A DNA stretch of 64,000 bases from an uncultured Candidatus Peribacteria bacterium (GCA_964343715.1 CAYFJZ010000006.1:96425-160424), one strand, 5' to 3'; shown: positions 11,917 to 54,680, counted from the stretch's first letter. The notes: generated from the sequence alone by a model not told the origin. A program made the numbers and translations.

Positions 11917-11920
11917 AATT

Positions 11921-26663: not shown

Positions 26664-26716
26664 TCTATTTATTTTACCAGAAAATCGCGTTTGAGGCAAT
26701 GGTGAAAGACGCTTTT

Positions 26717-36557: not shown

Positions 36558-36683
36558 GAAAATTTGATGTAAGGAGTATAATACGATAAAAAATTGAATT
36601 TGTCAAATATTATCACTCTTTTTCAAGACTTCTTTGTACCCTATTTGGTTGCCGTGTCAAAACCAAAACGTTATTTTTTCTCC

Positions 36684-37415
36684 ATGACAAAATACTTTGC
36701 CATCCTCAACATCACCCCCGATTCATTTTCCGACGGGGGAAAGTATATTAAAACCGAAGACGCCCTCCGTCAGGCCGAGCATTTAATGGCGCAGGGGGCC
36801 GACTTCTTAGATGTAGGAGGGGAGAGCACCCGCCCAGGCGCAGAAACCATTTTGCCATCAGAGGAATGGAAACGGGTAGAGTCTGTACTAAAGGTATTAC
36901 TCGAAAAATATCCCAAACGAATATCGCTCGACACTCGAAATCCAGAAACGGCTCAGCGCTTTCTCGAAATAGGAGGAACCATCCTCAATGATGTGTCGGG
37001 GTTTCAGGATCCCAAAATGAGGGAACTGGCAGCTCAATATCAACCACTTTGTATCATTAATCATTTCCCCGGCCGCTCTATCGAAGAAGTTCACACCCAT
37101 CAAATTGATTCGGTTCAGCGCATCAAAGAAGACCTGCTCAAACGCCGAGAAGCGCTGGTTTCTGCGGGGGTATTACCAAGTAATATTATTCTGGATCCGG
37201 GTATAGGATTTGGAAAAACGATGGCGTGTAACGCCCGATTACTCGAATTTGCCAGAGAAGTCCCCGAAGAAAAAGTCCTCATCGGACACAGCCGAAAGCG
37301 GTTTTTAGGCGAAAATCGATTTGATCCGGACGTAAATCAAAAAGCCGCCGAAAAAGCAATACAGGCTGGGGCGGCGTATTTGAGGGTGCATGAGGTTAAC
37401 GGGTCCTCAAATTAG
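36684..37415 (+). CDS. folP: Dihydropteroate synthase
   Basis: ILNITPDSFSDGG, DVGGESTRPG, ISLDT, NDVSG and DPGIGFGK. ATG at 36684. Confidence 0.92.
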   Translation: MTKYFAILNITPDSFSDGGKYIKTEDALRQAEHLMAQGADFLDVGGESTRPGAETILPSEEWKRVESVLKVLLEKYPKRISLDTRNPETAQRFLEIGGTILNDVSGFQDPKMRELAAQYQPLCIINHFPGRSIEEVHTHQIDSVQRIKEDLLKRREALVSAGVLPSNIILDPGIGFGKTMACNARLLEFAREVPEEKVLIGHSRKRFLGENRFDPDVNQKAAEKAIQAGAAYLRVHEVNGSSN

Positions 37416-38133: not shown

Positions 38134-38170
38134 AATTGATTATTGCTAATTACTAATTGTTAATTGTTCC
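38134..38170 (+). repeat. TAATTGTTAATTG-type motif overlapping the DAHP synthase 3' end
   Basis: Contains ATTGCTAATTACTAATTGTTAATTG, identical over 25 nt to 52179-52203. Its complement encodes ...LTISN plus the stop TAG. Confidence 0.8.
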
Positions 38171-39201
38171 GCCAGCCCCAATATCATTTCCTCTGTCTTT
38201 TCCATTCCCACGCATCCATCCGTTACCGAAAGACCGGGAGTGAGTTCAGAAGCCGAAGAAGCGTTGTTCAGGCTCTGGTTGCCATCCAAAAGGAAACTTT
38301 CCACCATAAATCCCTTCGTTGCTGCCATGAGCTCGGGATCAGATTTCATAGAACCCAGTACTTCTTCTAAAACGATCGATTGTCTGAGCGGATCTTTTTT
38401 GCCCGTGGCTGGATCAATACAGTTTTCATGCGAAAGGTCCATCACGACGGCCGGATTTTGGATATTTTTTGCCTTCATCAGCTCCACCGCTCGACGCATA
38501 TGTTCGGTATCGTAGTTTGGTCGTCCACTTCCTCCGCGCAAAATCAAATGCGCAAAAGGGTTCCCACTCGTTCTCATCTGACGTCCATGAAGCGCATAAA
38601 CGTGTGAATGTTGGGCGGCAATAACAGAATTAATCGCTACGGGAATATTCCCTGAAGTTGGATTTTTTAGTCCCACAGGATGGGGGATCATCGAAGCAAA
38701 AATACGGTGTTCCTGGTCTTCGGCCGATCGAGCCCCAATAGCAATCCAAGAAATCAGATCCACAAAGTAGCCATCGTTGTGGGTAAAAAGCGCTTCATCG
38801 GCAATAGGAAGCCCAATTCCCAGGACATCCAACATCATTTTTCGGCAGTAGTAAATACCTGCCTCCAAATCAGGTTCTCCATAAGGATCCGGTTGGCTCA
38901 ATGGTCCTGTCCAGCCCACGGTGGTCCGAGGTTTTTGAGTATAAATCCTCATAATAACCTTGAGCTTGTCCTTTACCTGGTCGGCCACGGGTTTGAGCTT
39001 TTTGGCATACTCAATGACCGAAGTGTCAGGCCAGGCCGAACACGGCCCAATTATGAGCAGTTTACGATCATCAGCGCCCTTCAAGATGTCATACACCTCT
39101 CCACGGTCACGCTCGACATTTTTTTTGAGCGCTTCGGTGAGGGGAAGTTTAGATTTCACATCCTTAGGATGCGGCAGGACCTTTTCAACGATATGGGACA
39201 T
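38146..39201 (-). CDS. aroG: 3-deoxy-7-phosphoheptulonate (DAHP) synthase, class I
   Basis: KLLIIGPCSAWPD, MRIYTQKPRTTVGWTG, IGARSAEDQEHR and VMDLSHENC parallel the E. coli AroG/F/H motifs. Confidence 0.88.
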   Translation of the reverse strand: MSHIVEKVLPHPKDVKSKLPLTEALKKNVERDRGEVYDILKGADDRKLLIIGPCSAWPDTSVIEYAKKLKPVADQVKDKLKVIMRIYTQKPRTTVGWTGPLSQPDPYGEPDLEAGIYYCRKMMLDVLGIGLPIADEALFTHNDGYFVDLISWIAIGARSAEDQEHRIFASMIPHPVGLKNPTSGNIPVAINSVIAAQHSHVYALHGRQMRTSGNPFAHLILRGGSGRPNYDTEHMRRAVELMKAKNIQNPAVVMDLSHENCIDPATGKKDPLRQSIVLEEVLGSMKSDPELMAATKGFMVESFLLDGNQSLNNASSASELTPGLSVTDGCVGMEKTEEMILGLAEQLTISN

Positions 39202-39525: not shown

Positions 39526-41322
39526 ATGCTCCGTACCCACACCTGCAACGACCTTACCGCTCAAAACGAAAACGAAAGCACGACCCTTTGTGGTTGGGTT
39601 CACCGAAGAAGAGACCACGGGGGGATTATCTTTATCGACCTGCGAGATCAACACGGGCTAACCCAGATTGTTTTTGATCCCGAGGTCGATGCCACCGCTC
39701 ATCAGGCCGCCGAACAAATTCGACCCGAATGGGCCATTCAGGTGAGTGGGACCGTGAAAAAAAGACAAGAAGGGGCCACCAATGCCAATCTCAATACGGG
39801 GGAAATCGAAGTTTTTATCAATCAGGTACAGATCTTTAACAAGGCCAAAACGCCGCCTTTTGAAATCGACGTCGAAAAAGACATTCGCGAAGATCTTCGT
39901 CTGGAATACCGATATTTAGATATGCGAAAAGAACGCCTGCAAAAAAACCTGCGCCTTCGTCACCAGATGGGACAGGCCATTCGGGCGTACTTTGATCAGG
40001 AAGGATTTCTCGACATCGAAACCCCGATCCTGGTAAAAGGAACTCCCGAGGGAAGTCGAGAATACCTCGTTCCCAACCGGATGCATCCCGGGCAGTTTTA
40101 TGTTTTGCCCCAGTCTCCTCAGCAGCTCAAACAGCTCCTCATGGTAGGAGGAATCGACAAATATTTTCAAATCGCCCGCTGTTTTCGAGACGAAGACCTC
40201 AGAGGTGATCGACAGCCCGAGTTCACCCAGTTTGAAATCGAAATGGCTTTCTGCGAAGAAGAAGATGTGATCAACGTCATCGAACGCTGTTTTTATACCC
40301 TCACCGAAAAATGTGCCCCTCAAAAAGAGTGGAAAAAATACCTGGTTGATGGGAAATTTCGACGTATGACGTGGCGACACGCCATGGAAACCTACGGATC
40401 AGACAAACCCGATCTGCGGTTTGATATGCCCATGGTAGATGTTTCAGACGTCTTCGAAAAATCTGAATTCGTGGTTTTTGCCGGCGCGCTCAAAAAAGGC
40501 GGCGTGGTGAAATGCCTGAGAGTAGAAGGCGGATCGACGCTGTCTCGAAAAGAAATCGACGATCTGACCGAACTAGCCAAAACCCACGGAGCCAAAGGTT
40601 TGGCCTATATCTTGTTCGACGCTGAAACCGGCGAAAAAAAGTCCCCTATCCTCAAGTTTTTCAGCGACGAAGAAATCGAATCTCTCCTGCAAAAAACCGG
40701 GGTGGGCAAAGGCGACGCCCTCTTTTTTGGAGCGGATGAATTCATCACCGCGTGTGAAAGCCTGGGAGCGGTTCGTAAAGCGCTAGGAAAAAAGCTAGAA
40801 CTCATTGATCCCAACGATTTTGCCTACTGCTGGGTCACAGAATTTCCGATGTTTGAGATCAAAGAAGACGGCACCATTCAGGCCGCCCACCATCCGTTTA
40901 CGATGCCCCACAAAGACGACCTGCACCTTTTAAATTCAAAAGAAGAAAAAGACCTCCTCGCCATCCGATCTTATGCCTACGACATCGTGCTCAATGGCGA
41001 AGAAATCGGAGGAGGATCCATTCGAATCCACGATCAAGAGCTGCAGCACAAGATTTTTGAGGTTTTTGGCATGAACGAGGACGAAATTCAGATGAAATTC
41101 GGCCACATGCTTAAAGCCTTCCAGTACGGATGCCCCCCACACGGAGGTTGTGCCATGGGATATGACCGCGTGGTAATGCTCTTTGCCGACGAGCCCAACA
41201 TCCGAGAAGTCATCGCCTTCCCCAAAAACCAATCCGGCCAAGACCTCATGCTCGGCGCTCCCTCTCCCATGCCCGAAAAAGAAGTTCGCGAACAGAACAT
41301 CCAGGTTGTAGAAGAACTTTAA
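39526..41322 (+). CDS. aspS: Aspartate--tRNA ligase (bacterial type)
   Basis: 598 aa with OB anticodon domain, class II motifs (FRDEDLRGDRQPEFTQ, GGGSIRIH, GCAMGYDR) and the GAD insertion. Confidence 0.97.
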   Translation: MLRTHTCNDLTAQNENESTTLCGWVHRRRDHGGIIFIDLRDQHGLTQIVFDPEVDATAHQAAEQIRPEWAIQVSGTVKKRQEGATNANLNTGEIEVFINQVQIFNKAKTPPFEIDVEKDIREDLRLEYRYLDMRKERLQKNLRLRHQMGQAIRAYFDQEGFLDIETPILVKGTPEGSREYLVPNRMHPGQFYVLPQSPQQLKQLLMVGGIDKYFQIARCFRDEDLRGDRQPEFTQFEIEMAFCEEEDVINVIERCFYTLTEKCAPQKEWKKYLVDGKFRRMTWRHAMETYGSDKPDLRFDMPMVDVSDVFEKSEFVVFAGALKKGGVVKCLRVEGGSTLSRKEIDDLTELAKTHGAKGLAYILFDAETGEKKSPILKFFSDEEIESLLQKTGVGKGDALFFGADEFITACESLGAVRKALGKKLELIDPNDFAYCWVTEFPMFEIKEDGTIQAAHHPFTMPHKDDLHLLNSKEEKDLLAIRSYAYDIVLNGEEIGGGSIRIHDQELQHKIFEVFGMNEDEIQMKFGHMLKAFQYGCPPHGGCAMGYDRVVMLFADEPNIREVIAFPKNQSGQDLMLGAPSPMPEKEVREQNIQVVEEL

Positions 41323-41599
41323 TAAGTAATTTGAGAGGGGAGAAGTGTTTGACAAAGGCACAAAAAGAAAGTAGTAAAGCACAGCAAATAGATCGACCAG
41401 GTCTTTCTCATTTGCGCTGTTCTTTTTCAGTCCATACCACACATCAAAAAAAGGCGCACAAGTGGCTAATAATAGGTTTCGCTGATTTAGGTCAGACGGA
41501 ATCTTTCGTTAGCCATTTGTCATTCACCTCAGCAATGTTTTTTACAAGACCCCTGAACTACAGAGTCAGAAACAGAACGAAGAGAAAGGAATCAGAATC

Positions 41600-43672
41600 A
41601 TGGGAGACACAACTACCCAAGTGGAAGAAGAAATCCAGAAGTGCGAGGACGTCACCAGTCTCAGTGTTTGGGCCTCAGGAATCAAAGACAACCGACACGC
41701 CCCAGCACAGATTGCCGCGCTCTTGGCCAGAGCCGATGAGCTCTGCGTTGATGCAAAGGCCCTTTCGGGTCTTGTAACGGCTCATGAAAAGCAGGCGTTC
41801 GTCAAAAGGGCTCTTCTGGAGCACTTCATTCAGAAGCCGGATTTTCCGATTGCCGATGCCTCAGAAATGGCCATGCTGATGCACAGCCTGATAACGCCTG
41901 AGCAGGAAGGTCCAGAACATCGTCGGACCGAAGCGCTGCTGATCGAGCGAGCCAAATCGGTTTGCACCGACGAAGCCGCAACGGCTAAAGTGGGCAGTTA
42001 TATCCATTATGGGGATTTGAGAAATCAGTTTCTCTTGGATCTCTACGGCGATCAAGAAAGAAAAATCGACCCAAAAGCGTTTGGGACGCTTTGGAACCAG
42101 GTAGACGACGATGAGGAGTCTGCAGCAGGAGTAAAATCCTGTTTGTTGGAAAGCACCAAAACCTCCACCACAACCCCTTTAGAAGTGATGCAGGCGGCGA
42201 TGGGCGTCGCAGATTCAGAAGAACAGAGCCGTGTTTTGGAAGAACTGGCTCTCCTCGACAAAGTGGCAATTGCGTATCCGAATGATCTGGAAATGCTTCT
42301 GTCGCAGACCTCCCGGCGGGAGGAAGCCCTTCGTCAAAAGCTGATTGAGGCCAGTCGTTTTGTCCTGAGTCCAGACGAGCTGGTAGAGCAAGTGGGTCAA
42401 TATTCCCCTGATCCGACCCTCAATCACCAGCTGCTAAAACATTTCACCAAGCCTCCTTTCCGCATCGAGACCTTTGCGCAGCTCGACGCGCTGTTGGCTT
42501 CGGTCCAAGAAGGGAAAGGTGCCGACGCCCTCAAAGTGCAGATTTGCAGAAGAAACGCAAAGAAGCGACTGTCCGTTCCCAAGCGAACCAATGCCTGGGA
42601 TCTGTGCCAGATGGCCGAACGCGACACCAGTCAGTGGCCACAGGAAGTAGCCGTTGAGTGGGAAGAGAAGATCATCCAGGCGGCGCTTTGGGGCAATAAG
42701 ATCAAGGATCTCAAAGCCGCCACAAAGTGGGGGAACTCCTTCAGCTCTTTACGAGGGAGAGTCCACTGGATGGACCAATTCGTACAGAAACATGGAGGCG
42801 CCCTTACCGATCTGGTAGGCCTCTGGATGTGGGCCAACAAGATGGATGAGATGACAAAGGAGAGAGCATGGGCCACCGATTATCCCGGTGCCACCAGCCC
42901 TTCCGACCTCAAGCGGACCATCGAAAAGAAGCTGATCGAAATGGTTCGAAAACCGGGGCAGCGTACAGAAGAAGAGCAACAAGCGCTGATCACGCTCATT
43001 CGGTATGCAGAAGAAGGCACTCCTATGCACAAGCTGTGCCAGGAGGGGTTCCAAATGCTGCTTCAAGGCGTTTCGAGCACGAGGGTGGCCGTTGGCAGAT
43101 CAAGACGCCTCCAAAAAACGCTGCGTCTTCGGTTTCTTCTGGCCTACCTCGAACAGATAGGTTCCTACACGGAAGCCGATCTAAAAGCCCTGATAACCCA
43201 GGCCGATACCACACTCTGGAAACACGGTGGAGGGGCGCTCATTCAGGCCATTCTCCAACGAGCCGAAGGGTTGGGAATGGATCTCAACGATCCAGCACTC
43301 ACTCCCGGAGGGGCCGAAGAAGACTCGGAAGCAATGATGAAGCATGTTTTCGACATCTGCGAAGGGATGGATCCCCATGAGCCGGGAGACGCGGTGGCGG
43401 CCATGCAACGGATGAGGGATATTTTTCGATCCAAACCGGGAGCAACAGGGCTTGGGGAGGTGTTGCTCAGTGGAAAGGGATTTCCCGGGATGATGGGAGT
43501 CGGAAACCCGCCTTTTGATCCGATGGCTTTCGGCCTGATCAATCACCTTCTCGGAGAAGGTGGGCAGTCATTCCCATTTGCCTCAGGACCGGGGAGCCCT
43601 TTTAGCGTGGGAGATCTGGCCGAGGCCATGACACAGATGGATGAGGAACTGGTGAATAAGAAGCGACGGTAA
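41600..43672 (+). CDS. Hypothetical large alpha-helical protein, paralogue family member 1
   Basis: 690 aa. Shares many blocks with 45798-47357 and the C-terminal module with 47901-49064. Terminator at 43712-43750. Confidence 0.75.
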   Translation: MGDTTTQVEEEIQKCEDVTSLSVWASGIKDNRHAPAQIAALLARADELCVDAKALSGLVTAHEKQAFVKRALLEHFIQKPDFPIADASEMAMLMHSLITPEQEGPEHRRTEALLIERAKSVCTDEAATAKVGSYIHYGDLRNQFLLDLYGDQERKIDPKAFGTLWNQVDDDEESAAGVKSCLLESTKTSTTTPLEVMQAAMGVADSEEQSRVLEELALLDKVAIAYPNDLEMLLSQTSRREEALRQKLIEASRFVLSPDELVEQVGQYSPDPTLNHQLLKHFTKPPFRIETFAQLDALLASVQEGKGADALKVQICRRNAKKRLSVPKRTNAWDLCQMAERDTSQWPQEVAVEWEEKIIQAALWGNKIKDLKAATKWGNSFSSLRGRVHWMDQFVQKHGGALTDLVGLWMWANKMDEMTKERAWATDYPGATSPSDLKRTIEKKLIEMVRKPGQRTEEEQQALITLIRYAEEGTPMHKLCQEGFQMLLQGVSSTRVAVGRSRRLQKTLRLRFLLAYLEQIGSYTEADLKALITQADTTLWKHGGGALIQAILQRAEGLGMDLNDPALTPGGAEEDSEAMMKHVFDICEGMDPHEPGDAVAAMQRMRDIFRSKPGATGLGEVLLSGKGFPGMMGVGNPPFDPMAFGLINHLLGEGGQSFPFASGPGSPFSVGDLAEAMTQMDEELVNKKRR

Positions 43673-43711
43673 CGTCATGAATCAAGGATGATCGCGACGT
43701 TCTGAATTGAT

Positions 43712-43750
43712 ACGCCCTGTACAGGCTCAATCCTGGCAGGGCGTTTTTTC
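43712..43750 (+). terminator. Intrinsic terminator after family member 1
   Basis: ACGCCCTG...CAGGGCGT plus T6. Confidence 0.75.
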
Positions 43751-43796
43751 TGCGTTCACGAGCCATTTTTGGGTTGAGTTTTTAGTGGTGAAGAGA

Positions 43797-43825
43797 TTGA
43801 CAGGGAGTAGGTAATGATGTAGAGA
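43797..43825 (+). promoter_or_regulatory. Sigma-70-type promoter TTGACA-17-TAGAGA
   Basis: Upstream of the lipoprotein gene. Implies a ~190-nt leader. Confidence 0.45.
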
Positions 43826-44023
43826 GCATTTGTTCTTTTACATAATTCTTCCCTTTCCTCACGAAGCGATCCGAGTTTTTGTTTTTCAAAGATTGGGATG
43901 GCTTCGTTTTGGGGAGGGAGAAGAATGTTTGTTTAACTCATATGAGCCGGTTCCAGAGGAGGACCGTGAGAGGAATAGAGACGGGATATTAGTGACAACG
44001 TGGGAACAGAGTAGGGTTTGGTG

Positions 44024-45556
44024 ATGTTCAATGTAAGAGTGAAGTGGTGGCACTGGATTTTTGTGGCATTCCTTTTGTCTGGCTGTCAGCAACATTTTCA
44101 ATCTGAGAAACCGACCGTGGGGGTCACCGCTTTGGGGGGGCAGCAGTACCCCTCTTTGGCGGAACTAAAACAACTGAAGACGCCTGGAGATCAGGCCGAA
44201 GCCCTCATCAGCTGGTCACAACAGGTGATGGATGGGACTCTGAAGGTGGCGCCCGCAGCGCTCTTCGAAATCATGGGAAAGGTGCCTTGGGGTGAATCCT
44301 CAATAACTCGGCCCCAAGAACGTCTTCGGGCCTTTCGGAACCAGGCGTTGCAAAGCGCCATTGAACAGGAGCAATACTCTGTAGTGGAGCACTACAAAAG
44401 CTTCTGTGCAAACACCTTAGTTCCCTGGGTGAAGGAGAAGAGGGCGAGTGTAGTAGATCTTGAAGCGAGAGACTGTGCTTCTACAGTGAGCCTGTTGGCG
44501 GGAAAAGCCTACCAAAATCTGCTCTCCAGGCAAAAATGGGAGAGCGCCGAAAGGGTGTTGGTAAAATACGTAGACATCCCGAAGGGGTACAGTGAAGACT
44601 ATAATTCATTGCTCTGTCCTCCGCCCTGCAGTGTTCGGGATCATCACAACCATTCGGCCTTCAATCAGCTTTTGGTGAATAAACGCTACTCGGATGCCAA
44701 GGCCCTTCTGGAGAAAGGATTGGTCAAAGAGCCTCAGAGGATGTGGATTGTCCTGGATCACCTAAATATGCTCCTAGAAGGTAATCGCCTAGATCTGTAC
44801 TGGGCCATGGTCGATACCTTTGGCTTCGTCCAGAGCGAATGGCTGGTGCCCAGAATGGAACGCTTTGTTGCTGACCAGACCGAGAAAGCGCTGAAAGCGT
44901 TTGATCTAGTGGCGCTGAATAAGGTCAAAACGGTCGCTCAGCAGTTGGGGATGGACTTTGATGCGATCCTAAGGGCTCAGGGATTTATCCACTCTTTGGC
45001 CCACGGATTGACTCAAGAGTTCGACTTTGAGTTGCTGTCGAAAGAGCAAGTTCTGCTGGCAGCCGGATGGTATCTGCTGGTGGAGGGCTACAACACAGAA
45101 GAAGTAAGGCTGGAAATCGTCATCCAGATGCTCCGCAAGAAGCAAGTGGCCCTAACCCATCCCGAGGCGAAACGGATTTTTGCCCGTTATGTGGCTCGGA
45201 ACCTGATGTCTATCATCAACCAAGACGAACGCGTCAACCGATACAAGGGCCCTGATACCCCCCTGTCCAAGCTCTGTCGCACCGAGTTTGGGGTTGATTG
45301 GTTCGGAATGAGGACGGCCTGGCATATGGCGCGGATTCAATTCTTCCAAGAAGAGGCTCATCTGCGCTCCAACAAGATCGAAAAGGCCTTTGTGGCTCTG
45401 GCAGAGGAGAAGGGACTTTTGCCCGAAGCGTCCTCTGTGTTCTATGGGCCGCAGCGGCCGCTGCTGAGAAAGATACGGCGGATTATGTTCATCGCTCAGC
45501 AGGCAAAGGATTCGCCGGATATGAAGAAGGAGCTCGACCTTCTCAAGAAGATGTAA
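44024..45556 (+). CDS. Hypothetical lipoprotein
   Basis: Signal peptide plus lipobox WWHWIFVAFLLSGC. 510 aa, helix-rich. Promoter at 43797-43825 and terminator at 45604-45643. Confidence 0.75.
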   Translation: MFNVRVKWWHWIFVAFLLSGCQQHFQSEKPTVGVTALGGQQYPSLAELKQLKTPGDQAEALISWSQQVMDGTLKVAPAALFEIMGKVPWGESSITRPQERLRAFRNQALQSAIEQEQYSVVEHYKSFCANTLVPWVKEKRASVVDLEARDCASTVSLLAGKAYQNLLSRQKWESAERVLVKYVDIPKGYSEDYNSLLCPPPCSVRDHHNHSAFNQLLVNKRYSDAKALLEKGLVKEPQRMWIVLDHLNMLLEGNRLDLYWAMVDTFGFVQSEWLVPRMERFVADQTEKALKAFDLVALNKVKTVAQQLGMDFDAILRAQGFIHSLAHGLTQEFDFELLSKEQVLLAAGWYLLVEGYNTEEVRLEIVIQMLRKKQVALTHPEAKRIFARYVARNLMSIINQDERVNRYKGPDTPLSKLCRTEFGVDWFGMRTAWHMARIQFFQEEAHLRSNKIEKAFVALAEEKGLLPEASSVFYGPQRPLLRKIRRIMFIAQQAKDSPDMKKELDLLKKM

Positions 45557-45603
45557 TCTGCCAAATCCCTTGTGGCCGGAAAGGAGTTAAACACCACAAG
45601 AAT

Positions 45604-45643
45604 ATCCCCCGGGGTCGACAACGACCTCGGGGGATTTTGCTTT
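45604..45643 (+). terminator. Intrinsic terminator after the lipoprotein gene
   Basis: ATCCCCCGGGGTCG / CGACCTCGGGGGAT followed by a T-rich tail. Confidence 0.75.
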
Positions 45644-45654
45644 AGAGGGCAAGA

Positions 45655-45683
45655 TTGACACTTTTTTAGAAAAAAAGTAAAAA
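45655..45683 (+). promoter_or_regulatory. Sigma-70-type promoter TTGACA-17-TAAAAA
   Basis: Upstream of family member 2 (45798), directly after terminator 45604-45643. Confidence 0.45.
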
Positions 45684-45797
45684 AGCCCTCGCTCTTTGCA
45701 TTTCGCTCAAGACGGTTCCATGTGTCTTGGGATGATTTATACATCCTATCATTAACCAGAATAGCAGTGACTACGAGAAAAAAGAGAGGGAAGAACA

Positions 45798-47357
45798 ATG
45801 CCTACCCCAGAACCAATTACCGCCAAAACCGCCGAAAATATGGAGCATATCCGTTATTTGGCCAGAATCATCCAAAACGATCGTCATGCATACGATCAAA
45901 TTGAAACCCTTTTGACTGAGGCAGCTGACCGCATTATCACCTCTCCGGTTCAGATGAGAGAACTTGCGGGGGAGAGGGGGATTGATGGCTTTGTGATTAA
46001 CGCCATTCTGCTCCACTTCATCCAAAAACCTGATTTTCCTATCAACACCCCGGAGGACTTCGGGATTCTGCATCAGATGATCTACTGGAAATCGGACTGG
46101 AGAGACGTCGAAGAAGCCTTGGTGCCTCGAGGGAAAACCCTCTGCACCGACGCCCAACAGACCGCTCTGGTGGCGGCCAAAATTTTGGATTCAGGCCGGC
46201 GTCATGGTTTTCTGAGCCGAGTCATAACAGAGGAAGGGGGCGTTATGAATGGCCCCGAATGTTTTATCGGCCTCTGGAAGCTGGTAGATAAGAATAACGT
46301 AAGCGAAGAAGCGACTTTGCTGATGTCTCAGCTGAGGAAGCTGGCTCAACAGCACTTTTCACCCAATCCGGACCAAGTGGCCCAGATGGCAAAAGCCGAG
46401 TCAGATCCGCATCTGAATCATCAGATTATCCGTTTCTTCTGCATAAATTCGAGCTGTGTCATCACCGAGACGGATCAACTCAATACAATCCTATCCGCGG
46501 TCAAAAAAGGTCGTGGAGACGAGAAGTTTAAAAGGTGGATCTGTGATGTACCGGCCGAGGGTCTATTCACTATCCCAGCTCGGACAACCACCTGGAACCT
46601 CCGTACTCTGGCGAGCCGAGATTCTGATGTTTGGCCCGTATCGGTCGCTATCGGGTGGGAAGAAGAAATTGCTCGGTTGGCACTCAGTCGAAAAGACATC
46701 AACACGCTTCTCAACGCCCAAGAGTTTGCCAAAGGATTTTTCACGCTTCGAGGGAGGATCATCTTCATCGACGGCTACATCCAAAAGCATTCCAAGAGGA
46801 TCCCCATCGAGCAGTTGGTGGCAGTTTGGAAGTGGGTCGACAGGCGATCGCCCGAAGAACTGGCTCAAACAGAGCTAGAAGGTCGTCTGTTTCCCCCCGA
46901 TCTGAAGTCTACGATTGAAGCAGCTTTGTTGGGGAAATTGGCCTCAAGAATTGTCCTTACGGTTGGCGAACGTCGAAGTTTGGCGGGAATAGTTCGCCAA
47001 GATGAAAGCGGGTCGGCCATGGATGTTCTGAGGGCCGAAGTCCTCAAGCGTGAGGTGCGAGAATGTGCCAATATGCAAGAAGCGGTGGATCATTTTCACT
47101 GGTTTCATCTGACCATTCGATTTCACTTTCTGATCCAATACGTCTCTTCCATCCAAAACTGCTCTGAAGAGGATCTACTGCTGTGCAAAGATCAAATTTG
47201 GGTTGACGCTTGGAGTTTTGGGGGCGGGCAGCTGATGAGTCTTGTCATGCTTCGTGCGACGGAACTCAAGCTGGATGTGAATCAAGCCAAATGGGCCCCC
47301 AGAACAGAACCTGAAGTAAAACCCGTCCGTGTTCCCTTACGGATCGATCCTGAGTGA
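45798..47357 (+). CDS. Hypothetical alpha-helical protein, paralogue family member 2
   Basis: 519 aa. ILLHFIQKPDFPI, DPHLNHQIIRFF, TLRGRIIFIDGYIQKHS and WSFGGGQLM match member 1. Confidence 0.75.
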   Translation: MPTPEPITAKTAENMEHIRYLARIIQNDRHAYDQIETLLTEAADRIITSPVQMRELAGERGIDGFVINAILLHFIQKPDFPINTPEDFGILHQMIYWKSDWRDVEEALVPRGKTLCTDAQQTALVAAKILDSGRRHGFLSRVITEEGGVMNGPECFIGLWKLVDKNNVSEEATLLMSQLRKLAQQHFSPNPDQVAQMAKAESDPHLNHQIIRFFCINSSCVITETDQLNTILSAVKKGRGDEKFKRWICDVPAEGLFTIPARTTTWNLRTLASRDSDVWPVSVAIGWEEEIARLALSRKDINTLLNAQEFAKGFFTLRGRIIFIDGYIQKHSKRIPIEQLVAVWKWVDRRSPEELAQTELEGRLFPPDLKSTIEAALLGKLASRIVLTVGERRSLAGIVRQDESGSAMDVLRAEVLKREVRECANMQEAVDHFHWFHLTIRFHFLIQYVSSIQNCSEEDLLLCKDQIWVDAWSFGGGQLMSLVMLRATELKLDVNQAKWAPRTEPEVKPVRVPLRIDPE

Positions 47358-47413
47358 GAAGCACCCAAAGAGCTGTAGCAAAACGGCAAAAAGGCCCCTT
47401 TTGTTCCTTCAAC

Positions 47414-47448
47414 GCCCCGCGCAGGTACCAAACCTGCCGGGGCTTTTT
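47414..47448 (+). terminator. Intrinsic terminator after family member 2
   Basis: GCCCCGCGCAGG / CCTGCCGGGGC plus T5. Confidence 0.75.
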
Positions 47449-47526
47449 CAGATATCGTGAAAAAATTGTGCAAAACTTGTATAAAACTATTGGAAAACTA
47501 TAATTTATCTAGTTAAAAACTATCTC

Positions 47527-47766
47527 ATGCTCGCCCAAATCAACTTTACTGCCGATCAAGACCTCAAAAAAGCCGCTTTAGCCAAGGCCAAATCACAGGG
47601 TATTCCGCTAAAAGTCTTGTTGAGTTTTTTTCTCAAATCCTACGTCGAGGGCGAGATCGAGTTTGGCCTCCAAAACAGCGGAGGAGCAAAAAGGAGCCTT
47701 CGTACTCCCCAAGAGCACGCTAACACGCTTCGAGCCAAAAAAGACAAGCTTCAGGGGATCAGGTAA
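47527..47766 (+). CDS. DinJ/RelB-like antitoxin-type small protein (no adjacent toxin)
   Basis: INFTADQDLKKAALAKAKSQGIPLKVLLSFFLKSYV resembles the ribbon-helix-helix N-terminus of DinJ/RelB. Confidence 0.45.
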   Translation: MLAQINFTADQDLKKAALAKAKSQGIPLKVLLSFFLKSYVEGEIEFGLQNSGGAKRSLRTPQEHANTLRAKKDKLQGIR

Positions 47767-47900
47767 GAGGATTGGGAGCCAAGGTCTTGACGAATATGTA
47801 TAAGAGGGTATCAATTGGGCGCCTAATTTATTAAGCACCCCGATCTTTTTCATTATCACCACCCTGAAATACTTTTTTTCAGAGAAAGGAAGTCCATCCC

Positions 47901-49064
47901 ATGTCCACCATTTCAATGGAAGACCTCAACGAATTACAGGTCAGCGCGCTCCTGCAGAAGGCGTTCGTAGAAAATCCAACCGTCGAGCAGGTGAGTCTTC
48001 AGCAGGTTCTCATTGCTGAGGCGGTAAAGCGATTTCCCTCAGCCGAAAGAGCCACCCAGATCGCTCAGAAGATTGAGAACGCTCAGGGGCGGTATCAATT
48101 TCTTCTGGAGCATTTTCGAACTCACTGTGAGACCTTTGCAGAAGAAGATCTCCATTATTTTGCCGCCCAGTGTGATGACTGGACGAATGGCGGTGGTCAC
48201 CTTCTGACCGATGTTCTCATCATCGCTCGGGATAAAAAATTTAATCTCAACCACGGCAGGATGAATCCTTTCCAAAAGCACTTCTCAGAGCAAGAGGGAA
48301 GGATTCAGAAAGTCGCTCAGCTGCTTGGAAACATCCAGGTCGCAGTCCAAGAAGCAGAGGAGATGCTGAGCCAAGCAAGAGCGGGAAATGAAATGCATCT
48401 CCCCCCGCCCCAGTTCATTTTGTCTCCTGATGAAGCAGATTCCTTAATGGCCAAAGCGGAAGAGGAGGGCTTGCTTCCAGCATCTCTCGAAGAAGAATCT
48501 TCTGACAAAGCGGAAGGGGAGGAACCAGATCAAGAAATGGAGGAACCGGCCGTCGAGGATCTTCCAGAGCCGGAAGAATATCCTAATCCACCACCCACTC
48601 CGACAGAAGTCGCTCTTCCCGAGGCAGAAGAAGTAGAGACAGAGACCAACACTGAACCACCCGAAGGAGAAAACCAAGATGGTTTTGAAGAAGTTCCAGG
48701 ACTGAAGGACCATTTAGCAGCTCGCAGAGCGATTCAAGATGGGGTGAACCAACCGGACGGAGAGCCAACACCAGATCTCACAGAGCAGGAACCTCTAGAG
48801 TTGACGAAGCCTCTAGACGAGGAAGCAGATCCACAAGAGGCAGAACTGGAAGCAGACTCAGGAGAAGCCTTGCTCGAACCAGACCCGATTAAGGATGAAA
48901 CAGTTCGTGAACTGGAGGCAGCAGAGGCGGAAGAGGAGGAAGAAGGCCTCGAACCAGAGCGGAAGGAGGAGGAGCCGGATCAGGAGGAATTTGCAGAGCT
49001 CGAACCCGATCCTGATGCAGGAGAAGGATCAACCTTTATCGGGAGTTCCAAAAGACCAGAATAG
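47901..49064 (+). CDS. Hypothetical protein: family C-terminal module fused to a Glu/Pro-rich acidic tail (family member 3)
   Basis: RYQFLLEHF...EEDLHYF...WTNGGGHLL aligns with the C-terminal modules of members 1 and 2, followed by a ~200-aa low-complexity acidic tail. Terminator at 49137-49171. Confidence 0.7.
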   Translation: MSTISMEDLNELQVSALLQKAFVENPTVEQVSLQQVLIAEAVKRFPSAERATQIAQKIENAQGRYQFLLEHFRTHCETFAEEDLHYFAAQCDDWTNGGGHLLTDVLIIARDKKFNLNHGRMNPFQKHFSEQEGRIQKVAQLLGNIQVAVQEAEEMLSQARAGNEMHLPPPQFILSPDEADSLMAKAEEEGLLPASLEEESSDKAEGEEPDQEMEEPAVEDLPEPEEYPNPPPTPTEVALPEAEEVETETNTEPPEGENQDGFEEVPGLKDHLAARRAIQDGVNQPDGEPTPDLTEQEPLELTKPLDEEADPQEAELEADSGEALLEPDPIKDETVRELEAAEAEEEEEGLEPERKEEEPDQEEFAELEPDPDAGEGSTFIGSSKRPE

Positions 49065-49136: not shown

Positions 49137-49171
49137 CACGCCCCGCAGAAAGACCGCGGGGTGTGCTTTTT
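49137..49171 (+). terminator. Intrinsic terminator after family member 3
   Basis: CACGCCCCGC / GCGGGGTGTG plus T5. Confidence 0.75.
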
Positions 49172-49271: not shown

Positions 49272-50318
49272 ATGCTCATCCTCGCCTTCGAGACCTCTTG
49301 TGACGACACCGCTGTAGCGGTTGTAAAAGACGGCACCCAGGTTTTGAGCGCCGTGACCGTAGCGCAGGTGCAGCACTCAGAATGGGGCGGGGTAGTGCCA
49401 GAAATTGCCGCCCGACTCCACGCCGAAAACTGGCGGGGGGCCCTGGATAAATGCCTGGAGGAAGCGCAATGCACCATTGATCAGATCGATGCGCTGGCCG
49501 TAACCCAAGGCCCCGGATTGCAAACGTCACTTCTCAACGGAACTACGGCGGCAAGCTTTTTGTCGCTCCTTCACCAAAAGCCCCTTATTCCCGTACATCA
49601 CATAGCCGGGCATATTCATTCAATTTTTCTGGAGCGAAAAGTTTCCGACATCGTTTTTCCGGCCCTGGTTCTCGTGGCTTCGGGAGGGCATACAGATTTG
49701 TATCTCTGGAAATCAGTTTCTCATCTGGTTCGAATCGGAAAAACACTGGATGATGCGGTGGGGGAGGCGTTTGATAAAACCGCTAAGATGCTGGGGTTGG
49801 GCTATCCCGGAGGGCCAATCGTGAGCAAAATGGCAAATAAAGGCGACGGAAAAGCCTTCGATTTGCCCCGCATCTGGATGGGCAAGGAATCTTTGGATTT
49901 CTCTTTTTCCGGATTAAAAGCCGCCGTTTATCGTACAATTCAGCAGCACCGTAGAGACGTGATTCATCGCGTCTCTCCTTCTAAAGAAAAGGATTTCACT
50001 CCCAATATCTGCGCCTCTTTCCAGCACGCCGTGGCCGACACCTTTCTCCAAAAATTCAAACGCGCCTGCCACCGGTATCCCCAAATAAAGCAGATTCACT
50101 TTGTAGGGGGCGTTTCTGCCAACACCTTTCTCCAAGAAAAATTCCAAAAGTTTTGTACCCAAAACGGCCTCGAATTCCTGACGCCTGTGCACCCCAAATA
50201 TTCCACCGACAACGCGGCCATGATCGGGGCAGCGGCCTATTTTGCGGCACAAGAGGATCCCGGATGGGCCAAGATACAGTTTGTTAATGCTCAGCCAAGG
50301 CTCAGTATGGTTTCTTGA
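49272..50318 (+). CDS. tsaD: tRNA N6-adenosine threonylcarbamoyltransferase
   Basis: ILAFETSCDDTAVAV, VHHIAGHI, ASGGHT, DEAFDK and LGLGYPGGP match. Confidence 0.95.
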   Translation: MLILAFETSCDDTAVAVVKDGTQVLSAVTVAQVQHSEWGGVVPEIAARLHAENWRGALDKCLEEAQCTIDQIDALAVTQGPGLQTSLLNGTTAASFLSLLHQKPLIPVHHIAGHIHSIFLERKVSDIVFPALVLVASGGHTDLYLWKSVSHLVRIGKTLDDAVGEAFDKTAKMLGLGYPGGPIVSKMANKGDGKAFDLPRIWMGKESLDFSFSGLKAAVYRTIQQHRRDVIHRVSPSKEKDFTPNICASFQHAVADTFLQKFKRACHRYPQIKQIHFVGGVSANTFLQEKFQKFCTQNGLEFLTPVHPKYSTDNAAMIGAAAYFAAQEDPGWAKIQFVNAQPRLSMVS

Positions 50319-50525: not shown

Positions 50526-51413
50526 ATGGATGCATCAGCAACCCAACAATTTCAAATCATCGCCCTAGGTGTAGGATCCGCTTTTACCCTGCCCCCAAAA
50601 CCAAAGAAAGGAGAGAGGCCAGATCTCAACGCCTGCGACTTTCAGTCCAATTTCGCCATCAGAGGACCCAGCGGAAGATATCTGATCCTGGACGCGGGAG
50701 GCGATTTGCGTTTTGCCCTGTTTCTGGCGGGGATCTCACTCAGCGAGATTGACGGAGTTTACATTAGTCATCTGCACAATGATCACAACGGCGGGATGGA
50801 GAATCTGGCCCTTGCTACCTACTTCAATAAAGATCTGAAGCGACCAGCTCTATACTGCTACAAACCCCTTATGACAGAGCTCTGGAACAAGTCTCTAAAA
50901 GGGGGACTGGAAACCCTGCAGGGGAAGCAGGCCGAACTTTCAGATTTCTTCGATCTTCGGCAGGTTCGTAAAAATGGAGAGTTTGTCTGGGACGGGATTC
51001 GGTTTGAGCTGATTCAAACCGTTCACATCGTAGCAAATCGGACCTTCAATCACAGCTTTGGTCTGATGATCCAAGGAGCCTGTGGCCGAGGTCCGAAGGT
51101 CTTCTGGACAAGCGATACCCAATTTGCCCCCAGTCAGATCTGCACTTTCTACGATATGGCTGATTTGGTTTTGCACGACTGCGAGACAGCGCCCTTCAAG
51201 TCAAAGGTTCACGCTCATTACGACGATTTGTGTGGACTTTCTGAAGAAGAGAGGGCCAAGATGCTGCTCTACCACTATCAACCTGGGGCCAGGGAACAAA
51301 GAAAACCCAAGGAGGATGGTTTTATCGACTTTATGCATCGGGGAGATACCATCACGATTACCCCGAACGGCATAATCCTTCCCAGGGAACTCCAGATGGG
51401 GACGGCAGCTTAA
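50526..51413 (+). CDS. MBL-fold metallo-hydrolase
   Basis: HxHxDH motif (ISHLHNDHNGG) plus downstream His/Asp ligands (TVH, LHDCE, HAHY). Confidence 0.85.
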   Translation: MDASATQQFQIIALGVGSAFTLPPKPKKGERPDLNACDFQSNFAIRGPSGRYLILDAGGDLRFALFLAGISLSEIDGVYISHLHNDHNGGMENLALATYFNKDLKRPALYCYKPLMTELWNKSLKGGLETLQGKQAELSDFFDLRQVRKNGEFVWDGIRFELIQTVHIVANRTFNHSFGLMIQGACGRGPKVFWTSDTQFAPSQICTFYDMADLVLHDCETAPFKSKVHAHYDDLCGLSEEERAKMLLYHYQPGAREQRKPKEDGFIDFMHRGDTITITPNGIILPRELQMGTAA

Positions 51414-51557: not shown

Positions 51558-52103
51558 TTACCTAGACACCTGAAACAAAAAATCCGATTTCAGACTCGGA
51601 TCGGTTTTGAAATTACCCAAAAAGTCCGTCGTAACCGTTTCGGCCTTAGGTTTTTGGACGCCTCGAGCCGACATACACAAGTGCAGTCCCGTCATCTGAA
51701 CAGCCACTCCTTTGGGCTTCAGCGCTTCGTTCAGTGTTTTTGCAATCTGCGTGGTTAATCGTTCTTGGTTCTGTAGTCGACGTGAAAAAGCCTCTACCAA
51801 TCGAGGGATTTTGGAAAGCCCCGTAATATGCTGGTCCGGAATATAAGCCACATGCGCTACCCCGAAAAAGGGAATCATATGATGCTCACAGACCGAAAAA
51901 TACTCGATATTGCGCACCAAAACCATCTCGTCATAGGCCTCATTGGTAAAGGTCTTCAGAATCGATTTTGGATCAACTTTGTATCCCGAAAAAAGTTCGG
52001 CGTAGGCTTTCTCAACCCGAGCAGGGGTGTCGACGAGTCCCTCACGAGAGGGGTCATCGCCCACATGAGTAATGATCTGTTGGATGTGAGATTGAATCGA
52101 CAT
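51558..52103 (-). CDS. folE: GTP cyclohydrolase I
   Basis: DPSREGLVDTPARV, FSVCEHHMIPFFG, GLSKIPRLV and QERLT. ATG at 52103. Confidence 0.92.
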   Translation of the reverse strand: MSIQSHIQQIITHVGDDPSREGLVDTPARVEKAYAELFSGYKVDPKSILKTFTNEAYDEMVLVRNIEYFSVCEHHMIPFFGVAHVAYIPDQHITGLSKIPRLVEAFSRRLQNQERLTTQIAKTLNEALKPKGVAVQMTGLHLCMSARGVQKPKAETVTTDFLGNFKTDPSLKSDFLFQVSR

Positions 52104-52106
52104 TTT

Positions 52107-52142
52107 CAATAAACAATAAACAATTAACAATTAACAATAATG
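52107..52142 (-). repeat. TAATTGTTAATTG-type motif
   Basis: The minus strand reads TTATTGTTAATTGTTAATTGTTTATTGTTTATTG, 3 nt upstream of the folE ATG. Confidence 0.75.
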
Positions 52143-52169
52143 TTCCTCTGCGTAGTATCAATAAAGCCA

Positions 52170-52204
52170 AAATTGTTAATTGCTAATTACTAATTGTTAA
52201 TTGG
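52170..52204 (+). repeat. TAATTGTTAATTG-type motif overlapping the folK 3' end
   Basis: AAATTGTTAATTGCTAATTACTAATTGTTAATTGG. Its complement encodes ...PINN plus the stop TAG. Confidence 0.8.
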
Positions 52205-52603
52205 TTTTTTCATTACTTCAGAAAGCGGCCCCATCACAAAATCCCGCTTTTCCATCTCTGGATGAGGAATCACCAGATCTGGTTCGTTCACGATCGTACT
52301 TCCAAAAAGCAAAATGTCTAGGTCCAAAGTGCGATCATCCCACTTTTTTTCCCGAATTCGTCCATTTTCGTTCTCGATTTGCTGAAGCAATTCCAAAAGC
52401 TTCCGAGGTGATTTATCGGTCTCAATTCGCCACACCGCATTTGTAAAAATATTCTTCGCCACCCCTCCAATGGGGGGAGTCTGGATGAGTGAAGACTTTT
52501 TGATAATACGAATCCCCGCATCAATAAGCGATTTTTCAGTATTCTCAAAGTATTTATTCGCGTCCCCCAGAGATGAGCCCAAAGCCACATAAGCAGTCGT
52601 CAT
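52190..52603 (-). CDS. folK: 2-amino-4-hydroxy-6-hydroxymethyldihydropteridine diphosphokinase (HPPK)
   Basis: AYVALGSSLGD, WDDRTLDLDILLFG, LVIPHPEMEKRDFV.GPL. Confidence 0.88.
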   Translation of the reverse strand: MTTAYVALGSSLGDANKYFENTEKSLIDAGIRIIKKSSLIQTPPIGGVAKNIFTNAVWRIETDKSPRKLLELLQQIENENGRIREKKWDDRTLDLDILLFGSTIVNEPDLVIPHPEMEKRDFVMGPLSEVMKKPINN

Positions 52604-52676: not shown

Positions 52677-54680
52677 ATGCGACATTTTATCTTCCAAAAT
52701 GGACTCAATGAATCTCTCCCAAAAGCAGAGGGAGGGCGCATTCAAACACCAGAGCAAATTAAAGCGGCAACCAGGAGGGGAGAAGAAAAGGCAGGAAGGA
52801 GAATCGAAAAAAGACATGGAATCCATCTCAAAGAGCTCTTAGACCCAGAATTCAAAAATAAGTCTCGAGAAAAGATCGTTGAAAAAATAAAACCAATTTC
52901 GGCTGAGAAAATTTTGAAGCTGAGTGACGAATTACTCGTAAAACTCTTTTCCGACAAAGATGGGAAGAGGGATCTTTTCGAAAGAAAAGAACCACAAATA
53001 AAAGCGAGAGTTGAAAAAGCCTTCAAAAACGAAAAAGCCATTGCCGCAGCGAGAGAGGCAATGGGAATAAAAAGTAAAAAACCCGACGCCCCAAAAATGG
53101 ATCCCCTAGAGTTAGAGGCGCTCAAAAAAAAGGGAGTCAAGGGGCTTCTGGAGCATCTTAACAAGTCTCAGGTGAATAGGGAGGATATGAAAGTACTTTT
53201 GGCTGATGTGACACTAGAGCAGCTAAAAGCGCTAGACGATGAGAGTATCGCCAAGATATTTTCAGGATCCAACGGAAAAATGGAGCTTTTTGGAAGAGAC
53301 AAGGGCGAAAAGGGAGCAGGATTGAAAGAGCGAGTGGTAAGGGCTTTCGTGAATTTGGCAAAAAAAACGAATCCCGAGGTAAACCCTCTTCTCACAGAAG
53401 AACTGAATCAGTTAAAAAGCAGAGGACTTAAGGCCGTCATTGAGAAGCTCAAAAAAACTTCTCTCCATCGAGATGACATGAAAAAGCTCTTAGCCGATGT
53501 AACTCCAGAACAGTTGTTGGCCCTGAAGGATCCCAAAGAATTGGGACTTCTTTTTCCCAGAAATTCACACTTTTACGGAATTGATAAATTTAGTAAGCAT
53601 GAAGAACTGCAGAAGGCGGTGAAAAAAGGACAAGAAAAGCTCTCGACGGACACGCTCAGCGATATTTTCAAGAACAAAGACAAACTCCAGTCACCAGAAG
53701 TAGCCGAAAAACTCAAAAGAGTAACTACCAAACATCTATTGGGAAAAGACCTTCCTCAAGCCGAAGAAGGAAAGCCCCTCACAGACAAACAGATTGCCGA
53801 GTACGCCAAAAAAGAGCCCGAGTTGGCCAAACTCTTTCTCAAAACGATCGAAGAAGGGAAGATCTTTATCGTGGATTTTCAGGGACACGAAGGCGCCATA
53901 CAGAACATCGGTTTGGGAGATCTGCTCCCTCCAACACAGAAATTTGTAAAGGTAAATGGAGTTGTGGGGAAAAGGTCTATTTCCGGCTCTGGAAAAGTCG
54001 GATACCTCACCCGAGAAGGAAGATACATTCCCGTTTTTGGAGGAGAAAAAGTAGAACTCCAGGTTTCAGAAGCAGAACAGAAAGGATTCGATACTATACG
54101 GACACTGTCGCCAAAAGAAGAAATTGAAAACAAGAAAAGATTCAAAGAAAACGAAGGGCAGATGAATCGAGTAAACAGAATCAAGAATCTTCCATTATCA
54201 CCCGTAGAAAAAGAGGCTCTGAACAAAGTCGCTGAGGACCTCAAGGTTGATCCCTGTGTAATACAGGCCATTATGCGCCAAGAATCAGGAAGTGGAAACC
54301 TAAGAGCGGTAAGGCATGAGCCTCCCTACATCCGAAAAGGGCGGCGAAAGGGATACAGTCCAGAAGAAGCAGAGGCCTATGGGACGAGTTATGGGCGGTT
54401 TCAGATCATGGGATTCAACTACGCCAAGTGTGGGTTTAGTTCCCCCCTAGAACTCAAAAGAGTCATGATGACCGGAACTATAGGAGATCAATTCAACGCT
54501 TTTGCGAATTTTATCAGAAACAAGCCCCCACTTCACAGAGCTATGCAGAACAAAGAATGGTCCACCATTGCTCATTATTACAACGGAGCAGGGTACGCTC
54601 GAAATAACTACGACAACGAAATCAGAAACCACTACCAAGCCTTCAAAATGCGAGAAGGAGCAAACATGAATATGGCCTAG
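52677..54680 (+). CDS. N-acetylmuramidase (DUF3380/PF11860-like) with Lys/Glu-rich repeat N-terminal region
   Basis: The C-terminal ~170 aa (IMRQESGSG...YGRFQIMGFNY...QFNAFANFI...IAHYYNGAGYARNNYD) fit the muramidase domain. The N-terminus carries three ~95-aa repeats. TGgTATAAT promoter at 52629-52637. Confidence 0.8.
   Translation: MRHFIFQNGLNESLPKAEGGRIQTPEQIKAATRRGEEKAGRRIEKRHGIHLKELLDPEFKNKSREKIVEKIKPISAEKILKLSDELLVKLFSDKDGKRDLFERKEPQIKARVEKAFKNEKAIAAAREAMGIKSKKPDAPKMDPLELEALKKKGVKGLLEHLNKSQVNREDMKVLLADVTLEQLKALDDESIAKIFSGSNGKMELFGRDKGEKGAGLKERVVRAFVNLAKKTNPEVNPLLTEELNQLKSRGLKAVIEKLKKTSLHRDDMKKLLADVTPEQLLALKDPKELGLLFPRNSHFYGIDKFSKHEELQKAVKKGQEKLSTDTLSDIFKNKDKLQSPEVAEKLKRVTTKHLLGKDLPQAEEGKPLTDKQIAEYAKKEPELAKLFLKTIEEGKIFIVDFQGHEGAIQNIGLGDLLPPTQKFVKVNGVVGKRSISGSGKVGYLTREGRYIPVFGGEKVELQVSEAEQKGFDTIRTLSPKEEIENKKRFKENEGQMNRVNRIKNLPLSPVEKEALNKVAEDLKVDPCVIQAIMRQESGSGNLRAVRHEPPYIRKGRRKGYSPEEAEAYGTSYGRFQIMGFNYAKCGFSSPLELKRVMMTGTIGDQFNAFANFIRNKPPLHRAMQNKEWSTIAHYYNGAGYARNNYDNEIRNHYQAFKMREGANMNMA

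Follow-up and report, generated by a model that had tools for sequence, protein, structure and literature searches.

A lineage-restricted cluster of orphan genes, including three paralogues, in an uncultured Candidatus Peribacteria bacterium

The closest described counterparts of the genes reported here are alpha-solenoid proteins (TPR, Sel1, PPR and HEAT), effector families of type IV secretion systems (T4SSs), lipoproteins of the Lgt/Lsp pathway, and ribbon-helix-helix (RHH) proteins, both antitoxins of the RelB/DinJ type and small repressors (Arc/MetJ/CopG/omega). The operators of RHH repressors often carry phased short direct repeats, and T4SS effectors of other bacteria commonly lack a Sec signal, evolve rapidly, occur as paralogues, and combine helical repeats with disordered tails. 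We compared with these systems a cluster of five genes (A, a lipoprotein gene, B, D and C) that lies in a 64,000-nucleotide stretch of DNA, hereafter the window, from an uncultured Candidatus Peribacteria bacterium (GCA_964343715.1 CAYFJZ010000006.1:96425-160424; positions are counted from its first letter). Proteins A and B resemble alpha-solenoids in being predicted to be all-alpha, with consecutive helix pairs, and in lacking catalytic motifs, which makes binding or scaffolding the role to expect by default; they differ in that neither sequence nor profile searches match them to a repeat family. Together with C, they resemble T4SS effector families in being confined to a single lineage, locally duplicated, devoid of a Sec signal, and apparently composed of helical-repeat cores with variable, probably disordered tails, and a VirD4-like ATPase is encoded on the same genome segment. 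Unlike those families, A, B and C have neither a shared C-terminal signal nor linkage to secretion genes.

The five open reading frames (ORFs) are all on the same strand and are located between the genes for AspRS (39526-41322) and TsaD (49272-50318), where the cluster spans ~7.5 kb of a 7.9-kb segment. The genes around it are common housekeeping genes (DAHP synthase, FolP, a metallo-beta-lactamase (MBL)-fold gene, FolE, FolK, PheS/T and RpoD). An ORF check recovers each of them at the following coordinates, in full agreement with an earlier note on this DNA.

41600-43672, + strand: gene A, 690 amino acids, full-length member of the family
44024-45556, + strand: lipoprotein gene, 510 amino acids from the ATG (alternative TTG start at 44018), lipobox LLSG followed by C
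45798-47357, + strand: gene B, 519 amino acids, full-length paralogue of A
47527-47766, + strand: mini-ORF D, 79 amino acids, basic (pI 10), possibly an RHH DNA-binding protein
47901-49064, + strand: gene C, 387 amino acids, with only the C-module of the family, followed by a helix and a 200-amino-acid acidic tail rich in Glu and Pro

Taken as a whole, we judge it a little better than an even chance that the cluster represents a private family of helical-repeat proteins, expanded by tandem duplication, that serve as non-enzymatic scaffolds. This judgment blends two parts of unequal strength. That the cluster is lineage-restricted and native, as described by its paralogy, orphan status and related features, is highly probable. 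A scaffold function for A, B and C, which is assigned by exclusion and relies on predicted structures, is proposed only tentatively and with clearly less than even confidence.

The paralogy of A and B is evident from BLASTP, which aligns both proteins end to end (196 bits, E=3e-59, 28% identity over 558 columns). Protein A is organized into an N-module (residues ~55-190), an M-module (~260-425), a C-module (~495-570), and a Gly/Pro/Met-rich tail (570-690) that is modeled with low confidence and whose last residues are KKRR. Compared with A, protein B lacks the linker (~190-255) and the long tail, and carries a short extension only. Residues 64-123 of C align to residues 509-569 of A (E=7e-5) and 441-501 of B (E=9e-7), a module of ~60 amino acids for which Smith-Waterman z-scores against shuffled sequences are 10.4 (A) and 12.9 (B). 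A hidden Markov model built from A and B alone recovers C at E=2e-5 in a search of 19,351 ORFs. The module extends over about residues 42-127 of C, and R..FL, E.DL, Q, W..GGG.L, A, N and P are invariant within it. Beyond it, Glu makes up 29% and Pro 13% of the tail of C (residues 185-387), which has a net charge of -62. The family relationships drawn in the earlier note, in which A and B are paralogues and C shares only their C-terminal module, fused to a Glu/Pro-rich tail of ~200 amino acids, are thus borne out, and the pairwise alignments behind them are statistically significant by E-values and, for those with C, also by shuffle z-scores. The same is true of its statement that the three paralogues have no signal peptides, as A, B and C each lack a hydrophobic segment.

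The sequence HFIQKPDFPI is identical in A and B, yet its 10 codons carry five synonymous differences. Across the alignment, the same codon is used at only 67 of the 163 residues that are identical in the two proteins. Because of these differences, the codon comparison indicates that the conservation of A and B is due to long-term purifying selection and not to recent gene conversion.

A further claim, that each protein contains an internal module duplication, stands only in part. The recurring 'LL.HF..KP.F.I' motif falls on the first helix and loop of predicted helix pairs, and its recurrence is suggestive. When the N-module is compared with the M-module by hhalign, P=0.0044 is obtained over 109 colinear columns, yet the reported probability is only 8%. 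Off-diagonal matches in hhalign self-comparisons have P=0.005-0.01, and Smith-Waterman z-scores for internal repeats are 2-3. The second motif copy in B is degenerate (RFFCINSSCVI), and the C-module shows no significant similarity to the N- and M-modules. A clear module duplication within A and B was rejected on the basis of these weak statistics, and degenerate helix-pair repeats, possibly including an old N/M duplication, are preferred.

AlphaFold2 predicts 11 helices in the N-domain of A (residues 1-190), with a predicted local distance difference test score (pLDDT) of 81 and a predicted template modeling score of 0.75. From residue 34 onward these helices alternate as long and short members of pairs, which begin at residues 34, 66, 105 and 138; beyond the N-domain, pairs begin again at residues 272, 308, 348 and 384. 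The period is ~32-40 residues, a pattern characteristic of helix-pair repeats. Full-length A is likewise predicted to be all helical (pLDDT 60), with low confidence in the tail. Foldseek comparison of the N-domain with PDB and BFVD returns the PPR protein THA8 as the best match, with a template modeling score (TM) of 0.51, and nothing at E<0.1. The other top neighbors, namely VPS35, TPR, HEAT, Sel1 and designed repeat proteins, all have E>0.1, and full-length A gives generic solenoid matches only (TM<0.25). The best reading of these models is that A and B are soluble all-alpha proteins of stacked helix pairs that would form an alpha-solenoid-like structure. No catalytic motif is recognizable in either protein. 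In contrast to established alpha-solenoids, the repeats of A and B are too degenerate for statistical detection, and the structural matches of A are non-significant. We know of no counterpart to the invariant HFIQKPDFPI loop or to the W-x2-GGG-x-L module.

All five proteins were compared with the profile libraries Pfam, NCBIfam, PADLOC and PHROGs (Pfam and PADLOC at E<=1), and nothing above noise was found. For A, B and C, Pfam hmmscan at this threshold yields no family, and hence no TPR, Sel1, PPR or HEAT repeat model. PADLOC yields no family for any of the five proteins, such that nothing points to defense, and the weak matches in PHROGs are all to families of unknown function, with no integrase family among them. 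The cluster proteins also have no match in the PDB, either by sequence or by profile. In an exhaustive HMMER search with an A+B profile, covering 1.84 billion cluster representatives that stand for ~15 billion proteins, the only matches were A, B and a single spurious repeat protein. Word-seeded searches that took A and the lipoprotein as queries and covered 5.8 billion clusters found only the queries themselves. A word-seeded search with the three-sequence C-module alignment also gave no match, although this is a weak null with just 22 candidates scored. No relatives were detected in 185,579 species genomes (GTDB), JGI metagenomes or IMG/VR, and all five proteins form singleton clusters at 90%. 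The four large proteins had been called unrecognizable in the earlier note, and they are still so by sequence, profile and predicted fold: the profile searches give no confident match to a characterized family, and structure prediction for A followed by Foldseek gives no significant match (E>0.1, TM about 0.5 or less). At the level of sequence this is a new family, but the type is familiar, namely helical-repeat proteins private to a 'dark matter' genome.

This isolation extends to the host. Its AspRS is 62% identical to that of a metagenome-assembled genome (MAG) labeled Candidatus Gracilibacteria and 55-58% identical to those of Peribacteria/Peregrinibacteria MAGs, with the next matches at <=49%, and the best TsaD match in JGI metagenomes is 46%. 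The AspRS loci of seven Peregrinibacteria-type MAGs have no other neighboring gene in common with the window. Described Peribacter genomes have a GC content of 58.5% (PMC4736985), unlike the ~47% of the window. Judged from these sequence comparisons, the host is a deep, almost unsampled branch in the Peregrinibacteria/Gracilibacteria part of the Candidate Phyla Radiation (CPR). An alternative code in which UGA encodes Gly, as in some Gracilibacteria, was rejected in favor of the standard code, as translation with table 11 gives full-length housekeeping ORFs and TGA is the stop codon of 6 of 31 genes. The nearest relatives are distant, and no Pfam match was obtained either for 8 of the 35 other large ORFs that were assessed in the window. 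Orphan status thus has mostly to do with the host lineage and forms the expected background for this genome. The five consecutive orphans of the cluster are the largest such block in the window.

The lipoprotein is unrelated to the A/B/C family. Its N-terminus, MFNVRVKWWHWIFVAFLLSGC, begins with a basic n-region and continues through a hydrophobic core to an L-S-G-C lipobox; as read from the sequence, MFNVRVKWWHWIFVAFLLSG followed by C matches the pattern [LVI][ASTVI][GAS]C. All of these canonical elements of Lgt/Lsp-pathway lipoproteins lie in the first 21 residues of the 510-amino-acid protein, and an lgt gene is present in the window at 11128-11943 (PF01790, E=2e-63). Lsp was not seen in the window. 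The identification of a lipoprotein with an LLSGC lipobox in the earlier note is therefore upheld. The mature protein of ~490 amino acids differs from described lipoproteins in having no known domain and no homologue in the collections searched, and any link between it and the paralogues is one that we only infer.

For mini-ORF D, which had been described as DinJ-like, the single match to RelB/DinJ (NF008412) is sub-threshold, with 13.1 bits and E=0.084 against a cut-off of 96 bits. The weak alignment pairs its first 37 residues with the N-terminus of DinJ. A match to phrog_36888 is also weak (E=0.0098), and no Pfam, PDB, phage or plasmid record matches D. No toxin gene of the RelE, YafQ or ParE type is adjacent, given that the downstream gene C has no toxin domain and the upstream gene is B. 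Because the DinJ score is far below the cut-off and there is no adjacent toxin gene, we treat D as a possible RHH autorepressor and not as an antitoxin. Both RelB/DinJ-type antitoxins and small RHH repressors resemble D in its small size and basic character, and RHH repressors do so also in the arrangement of its promoter region:

47472-47523, + strand: four direct AAAACT(T/A) repeats with spacings of 11, 11 and 22 nucleotides, overlapping a perfect TATAAT (47499-47504)

The 64-kb window has four AAAACTAT sites, of which three fall within this interval just upstream of D. The repeats likely constitute a putative operator and promoter of D that would serve a small RHH-type autorepressor.

Elsewhere in the window, at 31824-32367 on the - strand, a ParE-like toxin gene (89 amino acids; PF05016, E=1.2e-5) overlaps an upstream gene for a 94-amino-acid partner without a family match. 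The two are a probable type II toxin-antitoxin pair that is unrelated to D, and D has no similarity to the 94-amino-acid protein.

The spacers of the cluster contain the following promoter-like and terminator-like sites.

41349-41377, + strand: promoter-like site of A, TTGACA-N17-TAGTAA, 27 nucleotides past the AspRS stop; -35 element perfect, -10 element weak
43712-43750, + strand: terminator-like hairpin and T-run after A (z -3.7; -21.6 kcal/mol)
43797-43825, + strand: promoter-like site of the lipoprotein gene, TTGACA-N17-TAGAGA
45604-45640, + strand: terminator hairpin and T-run after the lipoprotein gene, 14-bp stem with 10 G-C pairs (z -5.6; -27.2 kcal/mol)
45655-45683, + strand: promoter-like site of B, TTGACA-N17-TAAAAA
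47414-47448, + strand: terminator hairpin and T-run after B (z -3.6; -24.5 kcal/mol)
47787-47814, + strand: weak promoter-like site of C, TTGACG-N16-TATCAA, found by eye only, without statistics
49137-49171, + strand: terminator hairpin and T-run after C (z -4.1; -20.1 kcal/mol)

Hairpins with T-runs follow all four large genes of the cluster, compared with 5 of 37 other window genes scanned (Fisher P=0.001). The statement in the earlier note that every gene is followed by such a structure holds for A, the lipoprotein gene, B and C, and fails for D, which has no terminator before C. Its count of two genes with TTGACA-type promoters rises to three (A, the lipoprotein gene and B), and the chance of finding three TTGACA within 1172 nucleotides of spacer is P ~0.0015; however, a strict scan finds no promoter. 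The individual terminators and TTGACA boxes are consistent with its proposal that these genes are transcribed separately, and the cluster genes look to be separate transcription units. The predicted 5' leaders of A, the lipoprotein gene and B are long (~110-220 nucleotides). The three island promoters (41349, 43797 and 45655, all + strand) share TTGACA-N17-TA[G/A]nnA without the canonical last T of the -10 element, which may hint at a lineage-specific -10 preference.

Most of the five other terminator-bearing genes of the window are also orphans. Strong hairpins with T-runs (-18 to -21 kcal/mol) are found at orphans without a Pfam match at 7688-8617, 10134-10991 and 55296-56201 (all - strand), and most housekeeping genes of the window have no such terminators. 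Strong terminators in this genome thus seem to mark lineage-specific genes.

In the reading that we prefer, a private family would have grown by local duplication (A and B) and by truncation (C, with the C-module only), and an unrelated orphan lipoprotein gene and the gene for a small basic repressor, probably of the RHH type (D), came to be interleaved among its members. Since three of the five genes are copies, tandem duplication is a simpler account of their adjacency than functional clustering. The lack of a catalytic motif and the solenoid-like fold make binding the default mechanism, such that A, B and C would lack enzymatic activity and serve as scaffolds or adaptors. Binding of a partner might involve the solenoid surface and the exposed HFIQKPDFPI loop, which is invariant, with the W..GGG.L module as another candidate site. 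The variable tails, long and probably disordered in A and C and short in B, could recruit or repel other partners. C, as a derivative consisting of one module plus an acidic tail, could compete for or modulate the partner of the C-module. Each large gene would be transcribed alone, from a TTGACA-type promoter to a strong terminator, and D probably acts as a repressor at its own promoter by binding the phased AAAACTAT repeats, and may in this way also limit read-through into C.

If this reading is right, the cluster adds another private helical-repeat family from a barely sampled CPR lineage, and thereby an entry for catalogues of 'microbial dark matter'. It also illustrates in clean form how domain truncation can follow local duplication. 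It opens no new mechanism and settles no open question, and the cluster gives almost no clue to function; such orphan sets are usual in these genomes. Phylogenetic isolation together with fast evolution accounts for the zero homologues among 15 billion proteins no less than functional novelty does. The cluster would matter more if its proteins were secreted host-interaction factors, as effectors of CPR episymbionts are essentially unknown.

Several other explanations bear on whether the cluster is genuine, native and new. That the ORFs are spurious and the region non-coding would agree with the absence of homologues outside the window, but the chance of this is close to negligible. The ORFs encode 690, 519, 510 and 387 amino acids, A and B are conserved over 558 columns with abundant synonymous change, codon-position GC is typical of real genes, and AlphaFold2 folds the N-domain of A confidently; by these measures A, B and C are effectively real. 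A horizontally acquired island or a remnant of a mobile element or prophage might be suspected from the GC content of the cluster (0.49-0.53, slightly above the window mean of ~0.47), its long intergenic spacers and its small antitoxin-like ORF. Such an origin is nonetheless highly improbable. The cluster genes follow the host pattern of codon-position GC (GC1>GC3>GC2), and their GC3 of 0.47-0.63 corresponds to the upper end of the range of housekeeping neighbors, with only the lipoprotein gene slightly higher. No tRNA was found in the window by a tRNA scan, an Rfam scan of the window was also empty, and no direct repeats flank the cluster. The A+B profile has no match in IMG/VR, D has none in phage or plasmid collections, and no integrase or other PHROGs family of known function was matched; a recent foreign island was rejected on these grounds, and the cluster genes are real and native in composition. 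It is also unlikely, though less so, that A and B are extremely diverged members of a known helical-repeat family (TPR, Sel1, PPR or HEAT-like), which would make the family old and not new. The best Foldseek matches are all to such repeat proteins, the helix-pair period is in keeping with them, and the lipoprotein matches TPR_14 faintly (E=0.85). Against this, A and B match none of the Pfam repeat models at a threshold as loose as E<=1, the PDB gives no sequence or profile match, the Foldseek matches all have E>0.1 and do not exceed a TM of about 0.5, and the exhaustive A+B profile search recovered no repeat-protein family.

The remaining alternatives give the cluster a joint or exported function. 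In a real multi-component system, the lipoprotein would anchor or receive A, B and C at the episymbiont envelope and mediate surface or host interaction, or the set would constitute a new defense system. Five consecutive same-strand orphans are kept between housekeeping genes, one member is predicted to be membrane-anchored outside the cell, the large genes carry individually strong promoter and terminator signals, and CPR bacteria depend on host contact (PMC12857230). We nevertheless regard such a system as quite unlikely, considering that no homologue in the collections searched means zero support from co-occurrence, that PADLOC gives no match, that tandem duplication accounts for neighboring paralogues, and that the lipoprotein is extracytoplasmic but no export signal is present in A, B or C, making direct contact unexpected without secretion. 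A, B and C could instead be T4SS effectors whose C-terminal tails act as export signals. T4SSs that have VirD4-like components are essential for the epibiotic growth of cultivated Patescibacteria (PMC12857230), and the window encodes a VirD4/TraG-type coupling ATPase (23961-26699). The paralogues have no Sec signals, appear fast-evolving and of helical-repeat type, and the tails of A (ending in KKRR) and C are probably disordered. This support is purely circumstantial, however: no T4SS signal is definable for CPR bacteria, the strongly acidic tail of C and the short tail of B leave no shared C-terminal motif, and the VirD4 gene is unlinked, ~15 kb upstream, so that we consider the effector role very unlikely. 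Equally improbable is a combined version, a lineage-private host-interaction toolkit in which A, B and C would be exported independently of Sec (e.g., by a VirD4-type T4SS) to act as helical-repeat adaptors on or inside the host cell, with the lipoprotein as an envelope partner and D as a switch for C.

The preferred reading of a tandemly duplicated scaffold family also has points that weigh against it. The AlphaFold2 models rest on two-sequence alignments, the solenoid assignment rests on secondary-structure periodicity and the kind of weak matches returned by Foldseek, and the scaffold role follows by exclusion from predicted helical repeats and missing catalytic motifs. Statistics for internal repeats are weak (P ~0.004-0.01, hhalign probability <10%). 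For D, the family match is sub-threshold and the RHH fold putative, and no site in the cluster passes the strict two-hexamer sigma-70 promoter scan. Strong single-gene terminators and long spacers are atypical for a compact CPR genome, and could signal something more specific, such as high independent expression.

Other genes of the window are of interest in their own right. Just past TsaD, an MBL-fold protein (50526-51413, + strand) scores above the Pfam gathering threshold for Anti-Pycsar Apyc1 (79.9 versus 50 bits, E=2.6e-22) and may represent a homologue of a cyclic-nucleotide phosphodiesterase, encoded on a bacterial chromosome. A 667-amino-acid protein (52677-54680, + strand) has a C-terminal N-acetylmuramidase domain (PF11860) and no other annotation; its N-terminal two-thirds are rich in Lys and Glu, with repeats visible by eye (...L.D..L.K.FS...GK..LF...). 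The coupling ATPase is a VirD4/TraG/HerA-like protein of 912 amino acids encoded on the - strand, and with a type IV prepilin peptidase (29148-29900, + strand) it belongs to secretion and pilus machinery of the kind used by CPR episymbionts. Folate genes (DHFR, FolP, FolE and FolK) and shikimate genes (DAHP synthase and DHQ synthase) are present at 20665-21285, 30663-31697, 36594-37415, 38146-39201 and 51558-52603, a set that represents more biosynthetic capacity than is usual in CPR genomes. Large proteins with PKD domains (627 amino acids; 5314-7197, - strand) and a lamin-tail domain (712 amino acids; 14871-17009, + strand) are probable surface proteins.

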